A stretch of DNA of 64,000 nt from sequence record MK373784.1. One strand, 5' to 3'. The position numbers and the translations under genes were made by a program. Source of the DNA: Escherichia phage vB_EcoM_MM02. The notes beneath the pieces were generated by a model, which was not told the origin of the DNA, ran no database searches, and saw nothing but the letters and a program-made list of their open reading frames with translations. This document shows positions 4,627 through 45,428 of this stretch, piece by piece; the first letter of the stretch is position 1, and every line of letters begins with the position of its first letter.

Positions 4627-6315
4627 TTATGAAACAGTCATTACAGTAAATCGTCCAACTTTGCTCATTTGAAGATGTTGTCCATAAGCTTGTGGGTCAT
4701 GGTCTCTGTGACTAATTATAAACACGTTTGCATCGGTTAGAGAGTTAAGAATTGTTGAAATGGCTTTAATACCTTCGGAATCAGTCGCGGAATCCATGAC
4801 TTCGTCCATAATTAATGTATTGATTCTAACACCAGAGACCTTTTCAGCAATATCTCGCCACGTAAACAACAATGCGATATCGATACGCGCTTTTTCGCCT
4901 TGACTAAATGAAGCATAACTGAACTCTTCACGGCCACGTGATTTTATAGATTCATTGAATTCTTCATCAATAGAAAACACGTAATCGGCTTCCATGATTT
5001 TAAGATAATGGTTAATCTGCTTGTTGAACAGAGGCACATATTTTTTAATGATAGCACCTTTAATACCAGAATCTTTTAACATATCTGTGATAATACCACG
5101 ATGGTATTTTTCAAGAACGATATCTGATTTTGTTTTAATGATTTTATCAAGTTCTTTTTGAAGCAAAGCTATCTCATCGGCATGGTCGATAAATTCTGCT
5201 GAGGCTTGCTCTATTGCAGCTTTAACTTTCTTAGCTTTATCAATAGTGGCAATCATTGCTTGTTTCTTGGTACGAATATCAGATGCAAGGTCCTGTTTAG
5301 TCTTAACATTAGCTCTATATTCGTCCACTAGGACACTCAGGTTATCTCTGTGACATGTAAGTTGCTCGAATGAGTGATTACATTCGTGAAGCTTATCGGT
5401 AATCTTAGAGACAATAGGGTCACCCTGGTGCAACTGTGATGCGCAAGTAGGACATGTACCGCCATCGTGATACATCTTAATAACTTTGTTGTATGAGTCG
5501 ATTTTAGATTTAATCAAGAATGCTTCTTGTCCTATCTTGTTGAATGCCTCAGTAGGGTCTTCATCAAGAACGATATTAAGTAGTCGCTCATTAGCTTCTT
5601 CGATTTCTGCTTTTAATGAACGAGCTTCTTTGGCTAGGTCGTCATACATATTCTGTAGACGCGCTACATTATCACCAGATAATTTCTTTTGACGTTCGAT
5701 ATTCTCGTTATAAATCTTAATTTGTTGGATAACACCATCTTTCTTAGCATCGAGAACTTGTCCCTGGGAATTAAGTTCTCGAACTTGAGACTTATTGATT
5801 TTATCCATTTCAGCGAGTGTGCCGACTTCTAAAAGGTCTTCGACAAGTTTTCTACGAGCAGGGGTGCTAAGAGCCATGAAAGGGGTATACCCTGCCGTCC
5901 CAAGCACAACGATCTGTTTAAAAGACGCGTATGACATTCCGATGCTACGTTCAAATTCTTCTTGGAAGTCACGACTGCTGGCAGATTCATCGAGACGAAC
6001 ACCGTCAACGGAGATTTCGAAAATATTGGGCTTTTGGCCGCGTCTAATGAAGTATTTTTTATCATCGAATTCCATCCAAAGCTCAACTAAGAGCTCTTTC
6101 TTGTTCGTGCTATTAATGATTTGTCCTTTCTTAACATCACGAAATGGTTTACCGAAAAGTCCGAAAGTAATGGCTTCTAACATCGTAGATTTACCACCGC
6201 CATTTTTACCAGTGATTAATGTCTTTTGGACTTTATCTAATTGGATATCAATAGGATTCCCACCTACCGACATGATGTTTTGATAACGAACACGATTTAA
6301 TTTAAATGATTTCAT
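4627..6315 (-). CDS. 46: Recombination endonuclease subunit gp46 (Rad50/SbcC-like ATPase)
   Basis: 562 aa; N-terminal Walker A GKNGGGKST, long coiled-coil middle, C-terminal ABC signature region. Confidence 0.9.
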   Translation of the reverse strand: MKSFKLNRVRYQNIMSVGGNPIDIQLDKVQKTLITGKNGGGKSTMLEAITFGLFGKPFRDVKKGQIINSTNKKELLVELWMEFDDKKYFIRRGQKPNIFEISVDGVRLDESASSRDFQEEFERSIGMSYASFKQIVVLGTAGYTPFMALSTPARRKLVEDLLEVGTLAEMDKINKSQVRELNSQGQVLDAKKDGVIQQIKIYNENIERQKKLSGDNVARLQNMYDDLAKEARSLKAEIEEANERLLNIVLDEDPTEAFNKIGQEAFLIKSKIDSYNKVIKMYHDGGTCPTCASQLHQGDPIVSKITDKLHECNHSFEQLTCHRDNLSVLVDEYRANVKTKQDLASDIRTKKQAMIATIDKAKKVKAAIEQASAEFIDHADEIALLQKELDKIIKTKSDIVLEKYHRGIITDMLKDSGIKGAIIKKYVPLFNKQINHYLKIMEADYVFSIDEEFNESIKSRGREEFSYASFSQGEKARIDIALLFTWRDIAEKVSGVRINTLIMDEVMDSATDSEGIKAISTILNSLTDANVFIISHRDHDPQAYGQHLQMSKVGRFTVMTVS

Positions 6316-6795: not shown

Positions 6796-7811
6796 TGTGT
6801 TGCCTCAATATAAAGTTCGTTGGAATATTTGACCAGCGCTTCTCTGTCTTCGTCTGAGATATCTGGAATCGCGTCAATATATTCTTTAATGATATCTTGA
6901 AGTGATTTAATCTCGATTTCCTGGTCGTCATCAGATTCAACACTGTTATCAACTTTAGAAACCATGCGAAGAGAGTGAACTACTTTTTCAAGTTCAGATT
7001 CAAACTTAGTCAACTCTGAATCAATTTCTGATACTATAACACGTACGGCTAGATTAGTATAATCAGAATAATTGATTTTGCCTTTAAACGGATAAGTGAT
7101 TCGTCGATGCCATGTTGTTTCATTAGGAATAAATTCCATACGTTCAACGTCAGTGTCAAATACCCAGAATCCGCGAGGGTCGTTCTCATCACCTGCAGTA
7201 AGGGTCCATGGTGTCCCAATATATTTGACGTTAGCAGCTTCAGAGATTGTGTGGAAGTGGCCAGACCAGACTTGTTTATAGGTCTTTAAGAAATCAGGTT
7301 CAAGCCCATGAGACTTCATTCCTTTATAGAAATAAAAGCCATTCAGTTCCCAGTGCCCAACACAATACGCTGCGGAAGAAGTCTTGATGTGCTCTAAGAT
7401 TTCACCTGTATTTTCTTCACACATCCATGGAACGATATCAATCAGACATCCGTCAAAATCTACAGTAGTTGGATGCTCGTAAATAGTAAAGTTTTCAAAT
7501 TGAGTCAACAATTCAGAAACAGTGTTAGGTGTTATTGTATTCTTAAACGCCATGTCATGGTTTCCTATCGTGACATGAACGTGAATGCCTGCTTTAGAAA
7601 TCATATCAACAATTTCACGATTGAATTCCATTGTACGATGTGTTATTGCTTTACGGACGTCAAACCAATCGCCGTACTGAATCCAAGTTTTAATCCCGTG
7701 TTTCTTAGAGTATTCAATTGCTTGACGAATACCATCACGTTGAATATCTTGAACCCATGGGTCGTCTTGTTTGACTCCGATATGGAAGTCGCCTAAGTGC
7801 AAAATTTTCAT
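6792..7811 (-). CDS. 47: Recombination endonuclease subunit gp47 (Mre11/SbcD-like)
   Basis: 339 aa; calcineurin-like phosphoesterase motifs (LGDFH, GNHD); same length as T4 gp47. Confidence 0.9.
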   Translation of the reverse strand: MKILHLGDFHIGVKQDDPWVQDIQRDGIRQAIEYSKKHGIKTWIQYGDWFDVRKAITHRTMEFNREIVDMISKAGIHVHVTIGNHDMAFKNTITPNTVSELLTQFENFTIYEHPTTVDFDGCLIDIVPWMCEENTGEILEHIKTSSAAYCVGHWELNGFYFYKGMKSHGLEPDFLKTYKQVWSGHFHTISEAANVKYIGTPWTLTAGDENDPRGFWVFDTDVERMEFIPNETTWHRRITYPFKGKINYSDYTNLAVRVIVSEIDSELTKFESELEKVVHSLRMVSKVDNSVESDDDQEIEIKSLQDIIKEYIDAIPDISDEDREALVKYSNELYIEATQ

Positions 7812-32560: not shown

Positions 32561-32637
32561 ATGAATTGTCCATTTCTGTATTTACCCCTCCAAGTAATTA
32601 TGAATATACTATCACAATTCTAGGAGAAAGTAAACTG

Positions 32638-32940
32638 TTATTTACCTTTAATTACTTTAGCTGCTTCGATAGCCGCTTGCTGAAGGTCATCCATAGACAT
32701 ACCGAATTTAGAAGCAAAGTTATCAATTTTCTTTTCGACAGCATTCAAAGGCTTGGCCTGTTTACCTTCATTAGCGCCAGGAAGAGCGAGAATACGCTCT
32801 TTGTCAATATAAAGGCTTACAAGTTTCTTACGGTCTTTATCGGACAAATCATGAAATGAATGAGCCTTTTTATTTATAGCGGCTTCTAATTTACCTGCAC
32901 TCACTCGCGCTTCAGTAATAAATTCTTTATATGTTTTCAT
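32638..32940 (-). CDS. Internal (capsid-packaged) protein, IPII/IPIII-like
   Basis: N-terminal MKTYKEFITEA capsid-targeting sequence; T4 ipII/ipIII position next to denV. Confidence 0.65.
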   Translation of the reverse strand: MKTYKEFITEARVSAGKLEAAINKKAHSFHDLSDKDRKKLVSLYIDKERILALPGANEGKQAKPLNAVEKKIDNFASKFGMSMDDLQQAAIEAAKVIKGK

Positions 32941-33004
32941 TTTTTGTTTCCTTGTTTGTTTTGATAGAGTAATTATACCATATTAATACTTAAGCGTAAA
33001 CAAT

Positions 33005-33265
33005 TTAAGCTTTACCGCCAGAAATAATTCCGAAGTTGTTAAAATCGTATCCAATATCGTCAACATCTACTTTAGGATTTACTACAACATAAGCAATTTC
33101 ACTACGTTTTGCATAGGTGTTGATTTCTTTACCATCGCCACCTAAGAAAGAATACCCATTACGTTTTAATGAGCCAAAGTCTTCGGCATCACCAATGAAA
33201 GCTTTAACTTTAAATTTAGGACCTTTGGCATCTGCTTCAACGATAAATTCTTGATACATTTTCAT
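33005..33265 (-). CDS. Internal protein-like (CTS-bearing)
   Basis: N-terminal MKMYQEFIVEA. Confidence 0.55.
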   Translation of the reverse strand: MKMYQEFIVEADAKGPKFKVKAFIGDAEDFGSLKRNGYSFLGGDGKEINTYAKRSEIAYVVVNPKVDVDDIGYDFNNFGIISGGKA

Positions 33266-33271
33266 TTTTCC

Positions 33272-33685
33272 TTAGTAAATTGATTTACCATAGTATTTGT
33301 ACCAAGTCGGACGTTGAGCAATTTTTTCATCTAAGCGTGCTTGACTTATCGCAATGGACGCTTCGGACGGGACGTAATTATTACGAAATTCTACAGGAAT
33401 GTCGGAAATATCCTGGACAGTCGTGTCCTTGATTTTGAAACCACGTTTCAAGCATTCAGCGATTAGCTCGATTTGACGTAAACGTAAAAATTCGAGTTTG
33501 TCGTAAAAGAATGTTACGTGACCTGTGCCTAAGATAAATGTTGGAGAGATTTTAAAATCCTTTACACGTTTACCGTTTTGAACATGTTTACGGACTGCAC
33601 CAAATACGCGTGGTAATTCACGATACTCAGCCATAAGATGTTGGTCGGACAGTTCAGAAACAAGTGTTAAATTGATACGAGTCAT
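33272..33685 (-). CDS. denV: Endonuclease V (pyrimidine-dimer glycosylase) DenV
   Basis: [31 protein letters not shown]... recognised as T4 DenV; 138 aa from ATG at 33685. Confidence 0.9.
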
Positions 33686-33690
33686 AATTT

Positions 33691-33742
33691 CCTCCAAGTA
33701 GTTGATGAATGTATAGTATCAAAACCCTTGGAGGAAGTAAAC
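33691..33742 (-). promoter_or_regulatory. Promoter cassette with inverted repeat sequestering the denV SD
   Basis: GTTTAC, TACTAT-like -10; arms cctccaag/cttggagg, the 3' arm being the denV Shine-Dalgarno. Confidence 0.45.
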
Positions 33743-33743
33743 A

Positions 33744-34025
33744 CTATTTTTCTGAAGCGCCTGAAATATATTTTTCAAGACGTTGTTTCATCAGCGAGCC
33801 GTTCTTAGCGATTTCTTCTGGTTTATCGCACATACGCAACAAGGCTTCAAGCTTAGCGATATCGCTGGTACGTTCAAATTTGCGAGTATCTATCTTACTA
33901 GCAAGTTCAGAAATACGTGCTAATAGACTTTCAGCTTCAACCAAAGCTGCACCTAGCTTAGTTGCAAATGTGTCAGTAGCTTCGTTAAGAATAGATTCTG
34001 ATAAAAATTCACTATATGTTTTCAT
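33744..34025 (-). CDS. Internal protein-like (CTS-bearing)
   Basis: Starts [11 protein letters not shown]; its ATG overlaps the e stop (ATGA). Confidence 0.5.
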
Positions 34026-34510
34026 ATATACGCTTTCCAAGTTCCTGTTTTAAATGTTGAGATTACGCGTTTCGCGCGATTAGGTGTCTGACGATACCAT
34101 TTAGATTGGGCTAGATTTACTGCCGCTTCATCCCAACGTTTCTGTTGAAGCATACGAAGAGAATTAGTAAAACCGGCGACGCCTGATACACCCATTTGGA
34201 AGACCATATTGACCAATGCACACCGACGAACCGCATCTAAAGAATCATATACCGGTTTAAGTTTAGCATTACCCAAGATTCCGCGAACGGCTTTATCAAC
34301 GTCTTCATTAAATAGCTTTTCAGCCTCATCAAGGGTAATTGTACCGTTGCATTTACGTCCGATCATTCTGTCAAGTTCAGCTTTAGCTACGGCTAAAGAC
34401 GGGGTCTTTGTTACTAAATGGCCTATGCCAATAGTCCAAAAGCCTTCGGTGTCTTTGTATAAAGTCAGTCTAAGACCTTCGTCATTACGAAGCATTTCAA
34501 ATATATTCAT
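34022..34510 (-). CDS. e: Lysozyme (endolysin) e
   Basis: [31 protein letters not shown]... recognised as T4 lysozyme; 162 aa from ATG at 34510. Confidence 0.9.
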
Positions 34511-35003: not shown

Positions 35004-35229
35004 CTCGGTCCCATGATTTGGCCATTAATTCGGACATAAATTCTTCAATACGCGTTTCTTTAGATGGACTTTCACTATTAGAGACCGCAAGTTTGTAATC
35101 TGCAATAGGACAGAACATATCAAGGTCCATATTAAAATCGTCTTTGATTTTTTCTTCTGACACATCTTTATCGTATGTGTACAGATAACTATCACATGAT
35201 TCTGATTTAATGTAAATTGCTATACTCAT
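34993..35229 (-). CDS. Hypothetical small protein
   Basis: Likely start MSIAIYIK with AGGAA SD. Confidence 0.3.
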   Translation of the reverse strand: MSIAIYIKSESCDSYLYTYDKDVSEEKIKDDFNMDLDMFCPIADYKLAVSNSESPSKETRIEEFMSELMAKSWDRDDE

Positions 35230-35717
35230 CTCAAATTCCTGCATTCGGTAATAAAACGTTCAACTTCATTATTCTTGGCCTTTATCTTGTCTTTACGTTC
35301 CTGTAAACTACTTTTAACAAGATTAATAATGATGCCTACAGTACCGCCGCCAATGATGCCACCAACAACACTTATGATAATAGATGCTAATAAGATAGCA
35401 ATAATATCAACAAAACCGAAAGAACTCACCTTAGTACTAAAAAACCATACCGACGGTACAAATATAATCCATCCTGTTATCCATTGGCACTTATTGAAAA
35501 ACTTTTCAAGCTCAGCTTGAGTTGTTCGTATTACTTCATCGATAGGTTGATATCCATTAATGTATCTGTTCACGATAATACCTGCTGGCTGGTCGATTTT
35601 AAATTCTTGGCAAATATGTTTCACTAAGTAGGATGGACATCCTGTCCAATCTACTGAATAGTATGAAATACCTTCGTTGCCATCGTCTATATTAGACCAA
35701 TATGTTTTGTTAATCAT
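35226..35717 (-). CDS. Hypothetical membrane protein, C-terminal FITECR motif
   Basis: 163 aa; one or two TM helices; ends ...ERFITECRNLR. Confidence 0.45.
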   Translation of the reverse strand: MINKTYWSNIDDGNEGISYYSVDWTGCPSYLVKHICQEFKIDQPAGIIVNRYINGYQPIDEVIRTTQAELEKFFNKCQWITGWIIFVPSVWFFSTKVSSFGFVDIIAILLASIIISVVGGIIGGGTVGIIINLVKSSLQERKDKIKAKNNEVERFITECRNLR

Positions 35718-36403
35718 TACCAGCCTTCCATAGGGAATTCCAGATAAACTTGAGCATTGACACGAATTTCATTGGTAATCTTTTTAACTCGGTCTGTATT
35801 ACGAGATACACGTCCGAACCAACGCCATCCGTTACTAATTGCACGAGAACCAGTGTGCCATGTTTGCCAATCAAACTGAAGAAGAGTACGATCTGGAGCT
35901 TCCCATTTCTCTAGTTCACCTTTTTCAATTTTTTCGAGGACTTCTTTGTGCCACTGGCGATAGATAAGTTCGCCATCAGGAATCTGACTGAACTCTGCAG
36001 TTCCTGTTGCAAAATGAGTAGGACACACGTCAGCGTTAACAAGACCAAGAATATGTTCAGAATGGTAACGAGGGTTGTCATAGTCAGGTTGTCCTGCAGT
36101 AATAAAGTGTTGACCAACTGGAATATCAGGGCGAGGAACATCGTCATGGTGGTATCCAGGAATAGCAGGATACCAACCAGGCATCAGCATATGAACCCGA
36201 GAATCAAATACAACATGTTGATTAGTCCAATCAATTGGGAGATTGGCAATAAAGCTACGAGTGATTGAGCCACCATTATCCCAAGCAAAACCCAAATCAC
36301 AATTAAAGAACATTGGTTCATTTTTGATTCGGTCATTTTGTACGTTATGTGCAAAACTACCAACTGCACGAGCTTGACTATTAAAAGTTTTAGAACTATT
36401 CAT
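35717..36403 (-). CDS. Hypothetical 228-aa protein
   Basis: His/Asp-rich segments (GYHHDDVP); no confident family assignment. Confidence 0.45.
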   Translation of the reverse strand: MNSSKTFNSQARAVGSFAHNVQNDRIKNEPMFFNCDLGFAWDNGGSITRSFIANLPIDWTNQHVVFDSRVHMLMPGWYPAIPGYHHDDVPRPDIPVGQHFITAGQPDYDNPRYHSEHILGLVNADVCPTHFATGTAEFSQIPDGELIYRQWHKEVLEKIEKGELEKWEAPDRTLLQFDWQTWHTGSRAISNGWRWFGRVSRNTDRVKKITNEIRVNAQVYLEFPMEGW

Positions 36404-36404
36404 A

Positions 36405-36710
36405 TTATTTTCCTCGACATTCTTTAATGAAATTTTCTAGATTGGTAGATTCAATAGCTTTTTTACGAGCTTCTGCATGTTCTTCTTCAGACAATTTACA
36501 TTTATAATTAACCCAGACATTATGGTCGAAACTAGTCGTGGCATATAATAACAATGCTCCAACGAATAGCAAAAACGGCGATAAGAATACAAAACCAGGA
36601 ACACCATCCATACTGTAAGCCTTTTGTAATACTGCAACAGAAAGAGCTGCGTAAAAAAGTGATACAAATATTGTTAAAAGACCAATTCGGTTGGTTTCGC
36701 CTAATTTCAT
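36405..36710 (-). CDS. Hypothetical membrane protein, C-terminal FIKECR motif
   Basis: 101 aa; two TM helices; ends ...ENFIKECRGK. Confidence 0.45.
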   Translation of the reverse strand: MKLGETNRIGLLTIFVSLFYAALSVAVLQKAYSMDGVPGFVFLSPFLLFVGALLLYATTSFDHNVWVNYKCKLSEEEHAEARKKAIESTNLENFIKECRGK

Positions 36711-36768
36711 AATATTCTCCTCATGTTTTAATAGGACTACTATAACATAGTCCTATCAGTTTGTACAC

Positions 36769-36987
36769 TTATTTTGACATTTCTTCGATGTCACGACGAT
36801 ACCCATCACGAACTTCACGAAGAGCTTCAAGGCCACACATAGGCTCGATACCAGTAATGTGAACTTGATTAATCTGATACTCTACATCTTCTAACTGAGC
36901 GAAAACATAACGACGTTCTGCTGCACAACCAGGTTTAGCTTTACCGAAACGTTTATTCAAAGTAGTCATTTTTATATCTCCATTCAC
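36769..36987 (-). CDS. Hypothetical protein
   Basis: 72-aa ORF. Confidence 0.4.
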   Translation of the reverse strand: MNGDIKMTTLNKRFGKAKPGCAAERRYVFAQLEDVEYQINQVHITGIEPMCGLEALREVRDGYRRDIEEMSK

Positions 36988-37049
36988 TCATTTGTTTTGA
37001 TAGGTCTATAGTATCAACAACTACAGACCTTGTAAACTGTTTTGCGAAA

Positions 37050-38006
37050 TTATTTGAAAGGTTTTACCATATGGAAATTTTGTTTGAAACGTTTGACGTA
37101 ATCGTCGTGTCCTAAGCTTTGGTACATACTTACTACTTTGCTATAATTTTCCCAAGCGAACTCACGGAACCATCCTGATGTGATTGATGTACAGACCTTT
37201 TCAAGGGCCATCATAAAACTATCACGTGGATGGATTTTAAAGTCGTTAGGAATCTGTGAACGTTCAAGAGCTAATACACAAGCTTCTTCATATACACCGG
37301 CTAATTTAACCATTTCTGGGAATGATTCGAACTTCTCGCGCGATGTCATAACTTCTGAGCCTTCTTTCATATAAAACTTATAAGCAGGCTGGTCAGTTAG
37401 TGCAATGGCTTCATGGATAGTATCATGGTCATACGTATAGATGTCATCTTTAAAGAACGCACTTTTAGAAGTGTCAAGAACTGGGTGAGCATAATTCAAG
37501 GTTTCTTTCTGGCGTTTCAGCATAATTTCAGTAAGTTCATCGTTCAGTGTAACACCTTTACCACGAAGATACTGAATATGGTTCATAGTCTTTAAAAAGA
37601 ATGGATTATTTTTCTTGAAACGATGAGACATCTTAATTGCAAGACATATCTCAGGAGTTGCCCAGTAAAACCCGTTCAAACGGTCTTTAGTCAAATTTTT
37701 CTTGGCGTATTTTAAAAGGTCATAAGAAGACGTGAAATCTTCAGGAGTGAGTTCACCGACTAGTTCGCGAACGTTAGTGATAGCCGGAACGATGTATGCT
37801 TCAAAATGAGTTTCGCGTCCATTATGGAAGCATTTGAAAACTTGGACATCAGGGTTATCTTGGTGAACATATACACCCATCATTTGATTTTTGAATGCAT
37901 TCCAAGAACCTTGGTCCGCAATAAAGTCCCAATCACTATTTTTAATAGCGCTAGAATCAATAAGACCGTGATAGTGAAGTGCACGAGAACCAATAACTAA
38001 CATCAT
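37050..38006 (-). CDS. Hypothetical 318-aa protein
   Basis: Largest ORF in the e-tRNA island; N-terminal VIGSRALHYHG...SDWDF is weakly NTase-like. Confidence 0.45.
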   Translation of the reverse strand: MMLVIGSRALHYHGLIDSSAIKNSDWDFIADQGSWNAFKNQMMGVYVHQDNPDVQVFKCFHNGRETHFEAYIVPAITNVRELVGELTPEDFTSSYDLLKYAKKNLTKDRLNGFYWATPEICLAIKMSHRFKKNNPFFLKTMNHIQYLRGKGVTLNDELTEIMLKRQKETLNYAHPVLDTSKSAFFKDDIYTYDHDTIHEAIALTDQPAYKFYMKEGSEVMTSREKFESFPEMVKLAGVYEEACVLALERSQIPNDFKIHPRDSFMMALEKVCTSITSGWFREFAWENYSKVVSMYQSLGHDDYVKRFKQNFHMVKPFK

Positions 38007-38034
38007 AATATTTTCCTCGGATTAATTCATTAAC

Positions 38035-38286
38035 TTAAATTTCACGACATGCGATATTATATTCATCCCAGAGGTCATCATGTGAAGCCTCTACCAATGG
38101 AACGATTGTACCGTTTATGTCTTCATTATAAGGGCAAATTGTACAGTGCGCATCTTCGAATCGGATGCCTTTGTGTTCAGATTTTTTATAACGCATATCG
38201 AATATCTTTGCAAACTTTTCACGAGTAATGGTTTTACCAACCACTTTGGTTCCTATACTTTCGTAATAAATCATTGTGGACTCCAT
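38035..38286 (-). CDS. Hypothetical protein
   Basis: 83-aa ORF. Confidence 0.4.
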   Translation of the reverse strand: MESTMIYYESIGTKVVGKTITREKFAKIFDMRYKKSEHKGIRFEDAHCTICPYNEDINGTIVPLVEASHDDLWDEYNIACREI

Positions 38287-38336
38287 TTGTTTTGATAGGA
38301 CTACTATAACATAGCCCTATCTTGTTGTAAACTGTT

Positions 38337-38534
38337 TTAGCAAGAATAACTAGATGATACCCAGCCTTGAACAGTGATACTATTGTGGGATAATGAGATC
38401 GCGTCCTGGAGATTCAGACCTGCGTTATCTTCAATCCATAATGTAACTTCTTCGCGTTCTTCTGTTGCAATTTGGAACAGGTTTTCCAGAGCAGCTACTG
38501 CCGTACGTACAGCACAATCTAATTCACGAGACAT
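38337..38534 (-). CDS. Small protein of the C-terminal GWVSSSxxC family
   Basis: 65 aa; ends ...VQGWVSSSYSC. Confidence 0.4.
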   Translation of the reverse strand: MSRELDCAVRTAVAALENLFQIATEEREEVTLWIEDNAGLNLQDAISLSHNSITVQGWVSSSYSC

Positions 38535-38543
38535 ATTGTTTCC

Positions 38544-38816
38544 TTAGCAAGTGTGAGAAGATGCGACCCAACCACCGGTTTCGAGGCTCAGGTTGTAGTC
38601 GTATTGGTAAACGTCAGCCCATTCAGCATAGCCGTTTTTTGTACAACGTTCAAGATCGGCTTTAAGATGTCCGGGTGAATGATAGGTTCCACCCATACCA
38701 TAAGCTGGGTACAAGTTGAACGTTGTGTTTTGTTTATCAGCAATTTCTTTGGCAGCCTCAATAGCTGCATAGATTTTTGCTACAGCTTCAGCCAGTTCGG
38801 TTTGTTCTTTAGACAT
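38544..38816 (-). CDS. Small protein of the C-terminal GWVSSSxxC family
   Basis: 90 aa; ends ...ETGGWVASSHTC. Confidence 0.4.
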   Translation of the reverse strand: MSKEQTELAEAVAKIYAAIEAAKEIADKQNTTFNLYPAYGMGGTYHSPGHLKADLERCTKNGYAEWADVYQYDYNLSLETGGWVASSHTC

Positions 38817-38825
38817 AATGATTCC

Positions 38826-39131
38826 TTAGCACAACGCAGAAGACGAAACCCAAGCACCTTCAGTAATAACGTAACCATTACCTTCACGCTTAACATCGCC
38901 ACCATTATTTTCAATTTCATCTTTCATCCACTGGGATACGATTTCACCCTTAGGATAATAAGTACGACCGCTACCATAATCACCTACAGAAAATGATACG
39001 GCATATTGGTCTGCGATCTTTGTTGCTTCTTCTTCGATACGTTCAGCTTGATTCAGAAGTTTATAAATTGCATCTGAAGCGGATTTGGCATCATTAAACT
39101 CTGGTACTTTAATTTCAATAATCTTACTCAT
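38826..39131 (-). CDS. Small protein of the C-terminal GWVSSSxxC family
   Basis: 101 aa; ends ...TEGAWVSSSALC. Confidence 0.4.
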   Translation of the reverse strand: MSKIIEIKVPEFNDAKSASDAIYKLLNQAERIEEEATKIADQYAVSFSVGDYGSGRTYYPKGEIVSQWMKDEIENNGGDVKREGNGYVITEGAWVSSSALC

Positions 39132-39487
39132 TTTCTACATTCCTTAATAAAGTTTTCGATTGTTTCATTTTCACGTCTAGCTAGGAGTTCATTATAACTA
39201 ATCATTTGAGAAGCGTAAACCTTTTTATTTTTCTTGTTGTGGTTTATAAAATCGTAGTAAAAATAGACTATAGTACAAAATGATGCGATGGATGCAAAGG
39301 CTTGGGTATACCGTAAGTCCTGCCATTGGTCTGTGAATCCACCAGTGTTCCCTATAAATCCTAACACAACGCCGTCAATAAGAAATCCAACTAATCCAAA
39401 GGCAAATCCCATGCCAATACTCATAATAAAAATTAGAATGTTCTCACCAAGAGAAGGCCATACGGTTAAGAGTTGAGGCTTTTGCAT
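39128..39487 (-). CDS. Hypothetical membrane protein, C-terminal FIKECR motif
   Basis: 119 aa; about 3 TM helices; ends ...ENFIKECRK. Confidence 0.45.
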   Translation of the reverse strand: MQKPQLLTVWPSLGENILIFIMSIGMGFAFGLVGFLIDGVVLGFIGNTGGFTDQWQDLRYTQAFASIASFCTIVYFYYDFINHNKKNKKVYASQMISYNELLARRENETIENFIKECRK

Positions 39488-39861
39488 CTTATTTCCTTAA
39501 CGAATTCCATAGCTTCTTCATATTCATACTTTTTAACAGCTTCATCATACTGAGCTTGGGCTTTTGCGCACTGAACTCTCCATTCTCTTAATCGGGCTCT
39601 GTGATGACGGCCTTGGTGCCAATATCCTACCCAATTAATAGGCATTAATAAAAACGGTACAATAAGTGGTGCGACGAACATTAATGAAAATGCTGCATCA
39701 GACGATATAACTTCACTAGAATCTAAAACAGCTCCTATAATCATAAAGATTAAAAATGCTAAAGCTAAAATAGGGCCAAATAGTACTTCATTTGGGATTA
39801 ATTTACGCTTGTATTCATACGCCCAGGGCTTACTTGGCATGTATAGGGTTGGCTTTGACAT
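39466..39861 (-). CDS. Hypothetical membrane protein
   Basis: Likely start MSKPTLYMPSK; two TM helices; C-terminus ...EFVKEIRCK. Confidence 0.4.
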   Translation of the reverse strand: MSKPTLYMPSKPWAYEYKRKLIPNEVLFGPILALAFLIFMIIGAVLDSSEVISSDAAFSLMFVAPLIVPFLLMPINWVGYWHQGRHHRARLREWRVQCAKAQAQYDEAVKKYEYEEAMEFVKEIRCKSLNS

Positions 39862-40453
39862 ATTCTCTACATTCCATAATAAATTGCTCAAGGATTAAAT
39901 TGTTAGTGAAATTAGGACTAACAACCATAGTTTCATAAAGCGCATCAATAGCACTTAAAGCATCAACTCTTTTAAGCAAAGGCTTGCCTTCATACATAGT
40001 TTCAGAATCGATGATTAACGTAAAGTAATATTTTTTATTATCGACTAGAACTTCTGTATCGATATAAAACATATTAGACCTCAGAAGCTTATCTCTAAAA
40101 CCATAATAATCTTCAGAGCGTTCGCTGATATATTCCCATTCAGTGTTTAAACAACAAACAGACCATGTAGGAGCAACGAAATCAGTGAATCTAATATCAT
40201 GGTCTGCAACTAGTTTAGCAATAGCTCCGATATCATGAATCATAATACCTGGGGCTAATAAAGATTTTCTGCTATGGCTAGCCGTTTTCTCGGTGGTCTC
40301 ATAAGAAGACGACCAGTACCATTTACGTCCGGTTGCAACATATCGTAATGAATCAACTAAAGACGTAGGTGGATTTACCTTATCTCGGAACTCTTCGAAC
40401 ATTGAGTCAATATCATTATTTTGGTTTCGCATGTTAACTCCTTTATTATCCAA
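39830..40453 (-). CDS. Hypothetical protein with FIMECR motif near C-terminus
   Basis: 207-aa ORF. Confidence 0.4.
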   Translation of the reverse strand: MDNKGVNMRNQNNDIDSMFEEFRDKVNPPTSLVDSLRYVATGRKWYWSSSYETTEKTASHSRKSLLAPGIMIHDIGAIAKLVADHDIRFTDFVAPTWSVCCLNTEWEYISERSEDYYGFRDKLLRSNMFYIDTEVLVDNKKYYFTLIIDSETMYEGKPLLKRVDALSAIDALYETMVVSPNFTNNLILEQFIMECREYVKANPIHAK

Positions 40454-42270: not shown

Positions 42271-42735
42271 TTATTTAATTTGTTTAGCAGACCAGATACG
42301 GTCTTTAATAAGTTTTTGGATATCTTCAACATACTCAAGGCTATGAGCGTGAGGATTATCTTTGAAGCTATGTGCTCGTGCCAGTTTCTGGCCTTCTGTT
42401 TTGATTACTAAAAGCTCTTTAAGAATTGCTTCATACTTAGAAATAATTCCTTTGGCGATATTTTTTTCTTGAGCTGCTTTAGGGTCTGTTTTTGGCGCAG
42501 GTGCTTTACCTGTAGCTTTCTGGAACAATTCACCTGATGCAGCTAGGCTTTTAAAAACTCGGCTAACAGTATTAGCATTAGTAAAACCTTCGGCTTTAAA
42601 ATCTCTAATAAAACGGAAACGTTCTTCATCAGAGGCGTCTTTGTAAGAATATTTACCTGCTTGAATTGCTGCAATCGCAGCGGCTTTTACATCTGAACTA
42701 GATTGTTCAGTCAAAAATTCAGCGTATGATTTCAT
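42271..42735 (-). CDS. Internal protein-like (CTS-bearing) 154-aa protein
   Basis: N-terminal MKSYAEFLTEQ resembles the capsid-targeting sequence. Confidence 0.5.
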   Translation of the reverse strand: MKSYAEFLTEQSSSDVKAAAIAAIQAGKYSYKDASDEERFRFIRDFKAEGFTNANTVSRVFKSLAASGELFQKATGKAPAPKTDPKAAQEKNIAKGIISKYEAILKELLVIKTEGQKLARAHSFKDNPHAHSLEYVEDIQKLIKDRIWSAKQIK

Positions 42736-43479: not shown

Positions 43480-43556
<77 letters not shown>

Positions 43557-43559
43557 GAT

Positions 43560-43634
43560 TGGTGACCCTGGCTGGTTTCGATCCAGCTACCTATCAGTTA
43601 TGAGCTGACAGCTCTCCCATTGAGCTACAGGGCC
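43560..43634 (-). tRNA. tRNA with CAT anticodon (Ile2 or Met type), CCA encoded
   Basis: Hand-folded cloverleaf: acceptor GGCCCTG/CAGGGTC, D stem GCTC/GAGC, anticodon loop CTCATAA, T stem GCTGG/CCAGC, 3' ACCA. Confidence 0.7.
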
Positions 43635-45140: not shown

Positions 45141-45428
45141 TTACAGAAGAGTTTTTGCAATAATTTTAAGCTGAGCTACAGAAATATGCTTAGCTTTAAA
45201 CAGTGCAGTCTCTTCGGCCGGAGAGATAACAATAGTAGCGCCGTCTTTCTTAGCAGACCATCCATCCCCTAAGTAAACAGTACCTTTTACTTCTTCGCCG
45301 TCAACCAGACTAATCATTGGTTTACCCTCACGTCCTTTATTTGCTTTAATAACTTCGGAAGTAAGGGTTGCTTCGGTCAGAGTAGAAACGTTAGCAACAG
45401 GTGATATAAATTCTTTATAGGTTTTCAT
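45141..45428 (-). CDS. Internal protein-like (CTS-bearing), T4 ipI position
   Basis: N-terminal MKTYKEFISP; upstream of 57B as ipI is in T4. Confidence 0.5.
   Translation of the reverse strand: MKTYKEFISPVANVSTLTEATLTSEVIKANKGREGKPMISLVDGEEVKGTVYLGDGWSAKKDGATIVISPAEETALFKAKHISVAQLKIIAKTLL

Follow-up and report, generated by a model that had tools for sequence, protein, structure and literature searches.

Genes with a capsid-targeting N-terminus around denV of Escherichia phage vB_EcoM_MM02 and their relation to the internal proteins of phage T4

Which function is shared by small phage genes that lie side by side, begin with nearly the same amino acids and otherwise have nothing in common? 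The question is raised by a stretch of 64,000 nucleotides (nt) from Escherichia phage vB_EcoM_MM02 (MK373784.1; the entire stretch is termed “the window” below), in which three short open reading frames (ORFs), here called A, B and C, adjoin denV, the gene for endonuclease V. ORF A opens with MKTYKEFITEA, ORF B with MKMYQEFIVEA, and ORF C with a tag of the same type. A first-pass annotation, drawn from the letters alone, had equated this tag with the capsid-targeting sequence (CTS) of the T4 internal proteins (Ips) and had regarded the three gene products as candidate counter-defence effectors. The window belongs to a phage genome of the genus Mosigvirus, the RB69-like T-even phages. In the following we outline why A, B and C are very probably T4-type internal proteins, which would be packaged and injected and would act against modification-dependent nucleases.

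The N-termini quoted in the first-pass annotation were recovered on the minus strand, where the ORFs have their low (3') ends at 32638, 33005 and 33744, and translation starts at 32940 (A), 33265 (B) and 34025 (C). For ORF C, the mechanical list of ORFs extends to a TTG at 34040. This start was rejected in favour of the ATG at 34025, which is the real one because it overlaps the stop codon of the lysozyme gene e as ATGA, the homologs start with MKTY, and RefSeq gives a protein of 93 amino acids (aa). A six-frame translation of the window contains the motif MK.Y.EF[ILV].E four times, and each copy begins an ORF; the count expected from the amino-acid frequencies is 8.6e-5, and a match was found in none of 200 shuffles. 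The tag cannot be due to chance. Its residues M1, K2, Y4, E6 and F7 do not vary, in contrast to positions 3, 5 and 9; at residue 8, five different codons specify Ile or Leu. Since the invariant residues are joined by a residue 8 that is reached through five codons, the constraint operates on the protein and not on the nucleotide level.

The tag can be compared residue by residue with the CTS of T4. In IPIII, as reported in the part of PMC9026906 that deals with Mullaney and Black (1996), residues 4 and 7 serve targeting and residues 8 and 10 serve processing by the prohead protease gp21; the roles are assigned there to Y4 and F7 for targeting, and to an aliphatic residue 8 and E10 for processing. 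The 10-residue tag by itself packages green fluorescent protein, beta-galactosidase and other proteins (PMC9026906). A, B and C all carry an aromatic residue at position 4 and Phe at position 7, right at the start codon, and all contain the gp21 site [L/I]-x-E (ITE10 in A, IVE10 in B, and LSE10 as well as LNE15 in C). The identification of the shared N-terminus as the T4 CTS thus stands, inasmuch as the residues mapped in IPIII are present and the locus and the protein families fit. Likewise, the three proteins are indeed unrelated beyond the tag at the level of sequence: blastp of A, B and C with the tag removed yielded no significant pairwise similarity, and the likeness ends about 11 residues in.

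ORF A is homologous to T4 IpII over its full length. Alignment with the T4 internal proteins, a check that the first-pass annotation had put forward, identifies it as the IpII ortholog with 92 of 100 residues identical, and a tblastn search matched T4 ipII and 197 phage records. The substitutions relative to T4 IpII are Q5K, A9T, G14S, V22I, P33S, R47K, A96V and D99G, and the codon changes relative to T4 ipII comprise 8 nonsynonymous and 4 synonymous ones. The only [LI]xE site in ORF A is at residue 10, and the predicted cut (MKTYKEFITE/ARV..., where the slash marks the cleavage point here and below) would release a mature protein of 90 aa with an isoelectric point (pI) of 9.7. ORF A and T4 IpII share their length of 100 aa, the tag type, the cleavage after E10 and the basic character, as well as a place in the hyperplastic e/denV locus and the same type of early promoter downstream. 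They differ in position, since ORF A lies downstream of denV and before vs.8, whereas T4 ipII lies between ipIII and denV, and in the DNA of their phages, which is arabinosylated in the case of ORF A and carries glucosylated hydroxymethylcytosine (glucosyl-hmC) in T4. In 2025, T4 Ip2 (IpII) was shown to inhibit the GmrSD of ECOR21, a BrxU-type type IV restriction enzyme (PMC12373910). By analogy, ORF A most likely encodes an inhibitor of type IV restriction of the BrxU/GmrSD(ECOR21) type.

ORF C belongs to the Ip5 family, with 48% identity to Ip5 of T2, PP01 and Bas37 over 84 of 93 aa (E=2e-24). Ip5 (bas37_0261 in Bas37) and ORF C are of similar size and have [IL]-x-E at residue 15 in common. 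In contrast, Ip5 is found in the 57B/ipI locus and ORF C between e and denV, the slot of ipIII in T4; moreover, the tag of ORF C is canonical and IPIII-like with an extra E10 site, whereas that of Ip5 is IPI-like (MKTFKEF). Candidate cleavage points in ORF C lie before SILNE (residue 10) and before ATD (residue 15). The site at residue 15 is kept across the family (LNE15/A in ORF C and RB69 ORF127c, ITE15/S in T2 Ip5), and LSE10 of ORF C is missing from RB69 127c (MKTYMNFYQNLSLNE/A) and from Ip5. Because the family preserves the residue-15 and not the residue-10 site, the propeptide of ORF C probably comprises 15 residues rather than 10. The claim that a tag of about ten residues is removed consequently applies to A and B, where the site is predicted after E10, and probably not to C. 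The tag of RB69 127c is itself degenerate, with only Y4, F7 and the residue-15 site left. Mature ORF C is near neutral in charge, and its AlphaFold2 model is all-helical and of moderate confidence (pLDDT 72.6).

A functional hint for the Ip5 family comes from a HIDEN-SEQ data set, in which insertions in Bas37 Ip5 are depleted on the uropathogenic Escherichia coli (UPEC) strain CFT073 versus K-12 (log2 fold change -2.09, q=0; 10.1101/2025.11.20.689424, Supplementary Table 7, Data S3) and are not depleted on CFE299 (Supplementary Table 7 of the same source). The depletion on CFT073 may point the way to what the Ip5 family targets. The main text of 10.1101/2025.11.20.689424 does not name bas37_0261.

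ORF B (MKMYQEFIVE/ADA..., with a predicted mature protein of 76 aa) has homologs in 217 phage records and is 96% identical to RB69 ORF125c; both genes directly follow denV. The name “internal head protein” of the RB69 ORF125c/PHROG 2667 family derives from the tag alone. A profile search across 1.8 billion representative proteins contributed four more full-length relatives along with fragments of close homologs. These relatives, from Gaprivervirus phages (SP18, VR7, CJ20), Morganella phage MP1 and two contigs, begin with a CTS-like tag in four out of four cases, and the named ones are all called “internal head protein”. They share the motifs GDAEDF..L+KNGY.F and DF..FG..GGK, and they keep the tag as protein while their DNA has diverged. 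All real relatives of ORF B down to E=2e-5 carry a CTS-like N-terminus, and no untagged cellular relative was found among the 1.8 billion representatives. Two non-phage matches of the profile are repeat proteins and were judged spurious, as was a weak match of ORF B to T2 Ip5 (42% over 24 aa, E=0.002 in a 17-sequence database), which was dismissed as noise. RefSeq starts the ORF B homolog of Shigella phage SHSML-52-1 (NC_031090, 2106..2360) at the second Met, giving a protein of 84 aa (MYQEF...). This start trims two residues of the tag, as several other database entries do, and is probably a mis-called start codon.

By synteny with T4 and RB69, the gene order places A, B and C in e/denV, which together with 57B/ipI makes up the known variable Ip loci of T-even genomes. 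In the direction of transcription, the window reads e - C - denV - B - ipII - vs.8, so that denV sits between ORF C and the pair formed by ORF B and ORF A. The T4 order is e - ipIII - ipII - denV - vs.8, and the RB69 order, e - 127c - denV - 125c - 124c - 123c - vs.8, corresponds to the locus in the window. Judged by these gene orders, e, denV and vs.8 form a conserved frame, whose slots are filled by different tagged cassettes in different phages. The hypervariability that the first-pass annotation had ascribed to internal proteins is borne out by the different tagged cassettes in the same e/denV slots of T4, RB69 and the phage of the window. The later literature, as represented by passages of PMC12373910 and PMC9026906, credits the polymorphism of this locus to Repoila et al. 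1994. RB69 124c (MKTYKEFIAES...) and 123c (MKTYQEFIAAV...) are two other tagged genes in the slot that ipII holds in the window; the RB69 stretch compared was 5450..6120 for the extra tagged genes and 6923..7204 for ORF127c.

Over the 2.2 kb that span the three ORFs, the window shares 98% identity with Shigella phage SHSML-52-1, Escherichia phage AlbertHofmann and numerous further phages. Altogether, 752 phage records match this 2.2-kb locus, and at least 80% of the stretch is covered in 165 of them. The closest relative (98% over the locus) possesses genes for the head maturation protease and for scaffold proteins. Within the locus, ORF C is translationally coupled to e through the ATGA overlap, and ORF B starts 6 nt past the denV stop codon. 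The features are compiled in Table 1.

Table 1. Features of the e/denV locus and further tagged genes in the window (PeSL, promoter-early stem-loop, described in the text)
Feature	Position	Strand	Evidence or remark
e (T4 lysozyme ortholog)	34022..34510	-	Pfam Phage_lysozyme E=5.9e-14; 83% identity to T4 e; upstream neighbour of ORF C
ORF C, 93 aa	33744..34025	-	phrog_3499 “internal head protein” E=2e-46; Ip5 family
PeSL-like element between C and denV, TTTACT-17-TACTAT	33689..33741 (promoter 33741..33713)	-	exact consensus match
denV (endonuclease V)	33272..33685	-	Pfam PF03013 Pyr_excise E=4.8e-14; phrog_1183 E=5e-62; 91% identity to T4 DenV
ORF B, 86 aa	33005..33265	-	phrog_2667 “internal head protein” E=8e-21; RB69 ORF125c family
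Early-type promoter before ipII, TTTACG-17-TGnTATAAT	32972..33000	-	promoter scan 10/12, extended -10
ORF A, 100 aa, ipII ortholog	32638..32940	-	phrog_7857 “internal virion protein” E=1.2e-54
PeSL-like early promoter right after ipII stop, TTTACT-17-TAGTAT	32606..32634	-	one mismatch; fold z=-1.8, weak
vs.8-like gene	from 32524	-	last in transcription order, after ORF A
ORF D, 154 aa, MKSYAEFLTE/QSS...	42271..42735	-	motif scan; phrog_2280 “unknown function” E=1.4e-53
ipI ortholog (E), 95 aa	45141..45428	-	Pfam IPI_T4 PF11634 E=1.3e-50; residues 20-95 = IPI*, PDB 2JUB E=5.8e-42

How would such proteins work? The steps proposed here follow the T4 model. The CTS of each protein would bind the scaffolding core of the assembling prohead, and the gp21 prohead protease would then cut after [L/I]-x-E; the residue preceding the cut would be E10 in A and B, and in C most likely E15. 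Once released, the mature proteins, of about 8-10 kDa, would remain among the packaged DNA, be ejected with it into the next host and act there before any phage gene is expressed. For B and C, the most likely role is to block modification-dependent nucleases, a different one in each case, that would attack DNA with arabinosylated cytosines. The tags, family memberships, synteny and cassette boundaries underlying this scheme were established in the present analysis; CTS-dependent packaging, processing, injection and the targets of Ip1, Ip2 and Ip3 are taken from the literature. Since no virion proteome was found, we infer that A, B and C are packaged and processed; the function of B and C is likewise inferred.

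The counter-defence idea put forward in the first-pass annotation is supported by proteins for which this role is experimentally established, namely Ip1, Ip2 and Ip3 (PMC12373910) and Bas37_0260. Ip1 inhibits GmrSD of E. coli CT596 and Ip3 the GmrS1/GmrSD2 pair of ECOR17; Ip1, Ip2 and Ip3 each inhibit a distinct GmrSD, and there is no cross-protection (PMC12373910). IPIII functions in the cytoplasm without its CTS. Bas37_0260, a tagged inhibitor of McrBC (10.1101/2025.11.20.689424), resembles A, B and C in being small, in its tag MKTYQEFIAE and in its place at an Ip locus, and it counters type IV restriction. B and C were considered as relatives of Bas37_0260 and rejected as such, as neither A, B nor C is similar to it beyond the tag. 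Mosigvirus DNA contains arabinosylated cytosines and is cleaved by BrxU; moreover, RB69 is subject to restriction by GmrSD enzymes, against which IPI reportedly protects it. The presence of both IpII and IPI in the phage of the window therefore makes sense.

Several observations weigh against the view that A, B and C are packaged inhibitors of nucleases. Mature ORF B is not basic (pI 6.4), and its AlphaFold2 model, built on a 7-sequence alignment, reaches a pLDDT of 48.7. Sequence searches of Pfam, NCBIfam and PDB returned nothing significant for A, B or C, so that ORF B is without a match in any of the three, and the ORF C model has no Foldseek match in PDB or BFVD. A literature search on virion proteomics of RB69-like (Mosigvirus) phages gave nothing usable for A, B and C, and the genes for the gp21 protease and the gp22/gp67/gp68 scaffold fall outside the 64-kb window. 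No canonical late promoter (TATAAATA) is present upstream of A, B or C; late synthesis would therefore proceed by read-through, by coupling (of C with e and of B with denV) or by continued early or middle transcription. Ten ip genes assayed against five more GmrSD systems yielded no new inhibitor pair (PMC12373910), and the statement that all Ips inhibit GmrSD enzymes is hence unproven. Finally, 57B, the neighbour of the Ip5 gene, is depleted as well, so that part of the Ip5 signal on CFT073 may reflect a polar effect.

Could B and/or C be packaged and yet serve a purpose other than anti-restriction, such as neutralisation of DNA charge, condensation or ejection, another host process or a non-nuclease defence? 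A head holds about 1000 copies of internal proteins, which touch the DNA phosphates with their lysines; the ten ip genes mentioned above brought no new GmrSD inhibition, and no structural or family clue ties B or C to a nuclease inhibitor. Nevertheless, we consider such a role rather unlikely, as mature B is neutral to slightly acidic and C near neutral, which makes both poor polycations, and as all four tagged proteins of known function inhibit type IV restriction enzymes. The presence or absence of cassettes among close relatives also fits accessory arms-race genes better than structural genes, and the host-specific fitness effect of Bas37 Ip5 points the same way. A far less probable explanation, to which we give very little credence, attributes the shared N-terminus to a conserved element of translation initiation or of the mRNA in small early genes, whose products would be cytoplasmic and stay unpackaged. 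It could draw on the first ~30 nt of the tagged genes, which are A/T-rich and similar in DNA, on the early-type promoters of A and of denV-B, where a canonical late promoter is lacking, and on another part of the window, where a conserved initiation region leaves a protein “motif” in the upstream gene. However, the tag is conserved as amino acids, with residue 8 specified by five codons and variation confined to positions 3, 5 and 9, which have been shown to be dispensable; the 10 residues alone suffice to package foreign proteins (PMC9026906); ORF A is orthologous to IpII, a classical virion protein; and the distant relatives of ORF B retain the tag at the protein level despite diverged DNA. 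The evidence as a whole thus favours packaged, injected anti-restriction proteins.

The borders of the tagged cassettes bear on how these genes are exchanged. Promoter-early stem-loop (PeSL) elements were described for the phage pair T4/PST, with the promoter consensus TTTACW-N17-TAYWAT (PMC4122927). In such an element, which marks the border of a variable cassette, the early promoter lies within or beside a stem-loop. In the window, an exact match combined with a significant stem is located before denV, and the elements that flank ipII have a weak stem or none: the promoter before ipII is one base off the PeSL consensus and lacks a stable stem-loop. The promoter between C and denV resides inside a 10-bp inverted repeat, the 3' arm of which holds the denV Shine-Dalgarno sequence GGAGG. 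As DNA, the stem-loop folds with -10.2 kcal/mol (z=-4.2), and none of 200 shuffles folds as well. The identity of the ipII cassette to T4, ~95% at the nucleotide level, begins at the ATG and ends in the GTTTAC -35 box immediately past the stop codon, whereas the DNA upstream of the ATG is unrelated to T4. Based on these boundaries, recombination at the conserved tag-coding sequence and at PeSL elements appears to swap cassettes between phages.

In the stem-loop between C and denV, GGAGG pairs with sequence upstream of the -10 box of the embedded promoter. Read-through transcripts from e and C would therefore mask the ribosome-binding site of denV, whereas transcripts from the embedded promoter would not. 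Masking of the ribosome site in read-through transcripts is a logic known for T4 e and soc. The only TATAAATA near the locus is found at 32871..32878 (-) inside ipII, at about codons 21-24; late transcripts from there could cover vs.8 and the 3' part of ipII, and not the intact gene. Window-wide, TATAAATA occurs 7 times versus 7.8 expected, which is no excess.

The three tagged genes around denV all exist, as the first-pass annotation had it, and yet the window harbours five, with two more at 42271..42735 and 45141..45428. The latter gene is the ortholog of ipI and adjoins 57B, as in T4. Its N-terminus reads MKTYKEFISP..LTE/A, compared with MKTFKEFTST...ITE/A in T4 IPI, and its propeptide of 19 residues (MKTYKEFISPVANVSTLTE/A) is devoid of a residue-10 site, as is that of T4 IPI (MKTFKEFTSTTTPVSTITE/A). 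The IPI* domain (PF11634) was absent from A, B and C in the Pfam search, where only the ORF at 45141..45428 matched. Apart from the tag, T4 IPI*, which inhibits GmrS/GmrD of E. coli CT596, resembles none of A, B and C in sequence; they would reach the host by the same route as IPI* and presumably have a comparable task.

The gene at 42271..42735, ORF D, has homologs in 511 phage records, and all sampled rows carry the label “hypothetical protein”. On the evidence of its N-terminus, it is a probable, unannotated internal protein. ORF D lies just downstream of the genes for tRNA-Arg and tRNA-Met; RB69 has a different tagged ORF (149c) in this slot, whereas T4 has no gene there. The slot by the tRNA genes resembles a third locus of internal proteins in T-even phages, unannotated so far. 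The tRNA genes at 43480..43634 (-) comprise only Arg-TCT and Met-CAT, as in RB69, compared with eight in the matching T4 cluster. Tentatively, and with the odds somewhat on the other side, this may be extended to the proposal that B, C and/or ORF D inhibit either modification-dependent nucleases with a specific recognition of arabinosylated-cytosine DNA or a non-GmrSD first-response defence, and that the tRNA-proximal slot is a third Ip locus. If true, these would constitute new inhibitor-target pairs.

A, B and C are already known, as 95-100% identical genes are present in hundreds of deposited genomes and RefSeq labels the homologs internal virion or internal head proteins. The first reading of the locus is right, and it amounts to textbook biology, which leaves the current understanding unchanged. 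The significance of the locus lies in the role of internal proteins as the phage's first counter-defence, acting before phage transcription. An inventory of the cassettes of a therapeutic or model T-even phage helps to predict which type IV restriction is overcome, and hence the host range. For the window, this inventory consists of IPI, IpII, an Ip5-like protein, an ORF125c-like protein and the 154-aa orphan. Two of the five belong to families with a known target, and the other three are candidates for matching to enzymes of the GmrSD, BrxU or McrBC type.

Two further features were observed elsewhere in the window. At 38337..39131 (-), three tandem paralogous ORFs of 65, 90 and 101 aa are 31-34% identical; they start with MS[KR] and end with G-x-W-V-[SA]-S-S-x-x-C, and their RB69 counterparts are in the ORF136c-139c region. 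At 35226..40453 (-), five neighbouring small ORFs, mostly membrane-protein-like, end in F-[IV]-x-E-[CI]-R (near 35255, 36431, 39151, 39504 and 39883). This ending is the shadow of the next gene's initiation region (TTATTAAGGAATGTAG..ATG), because that region overlaps the 3' end of the upstream gene.

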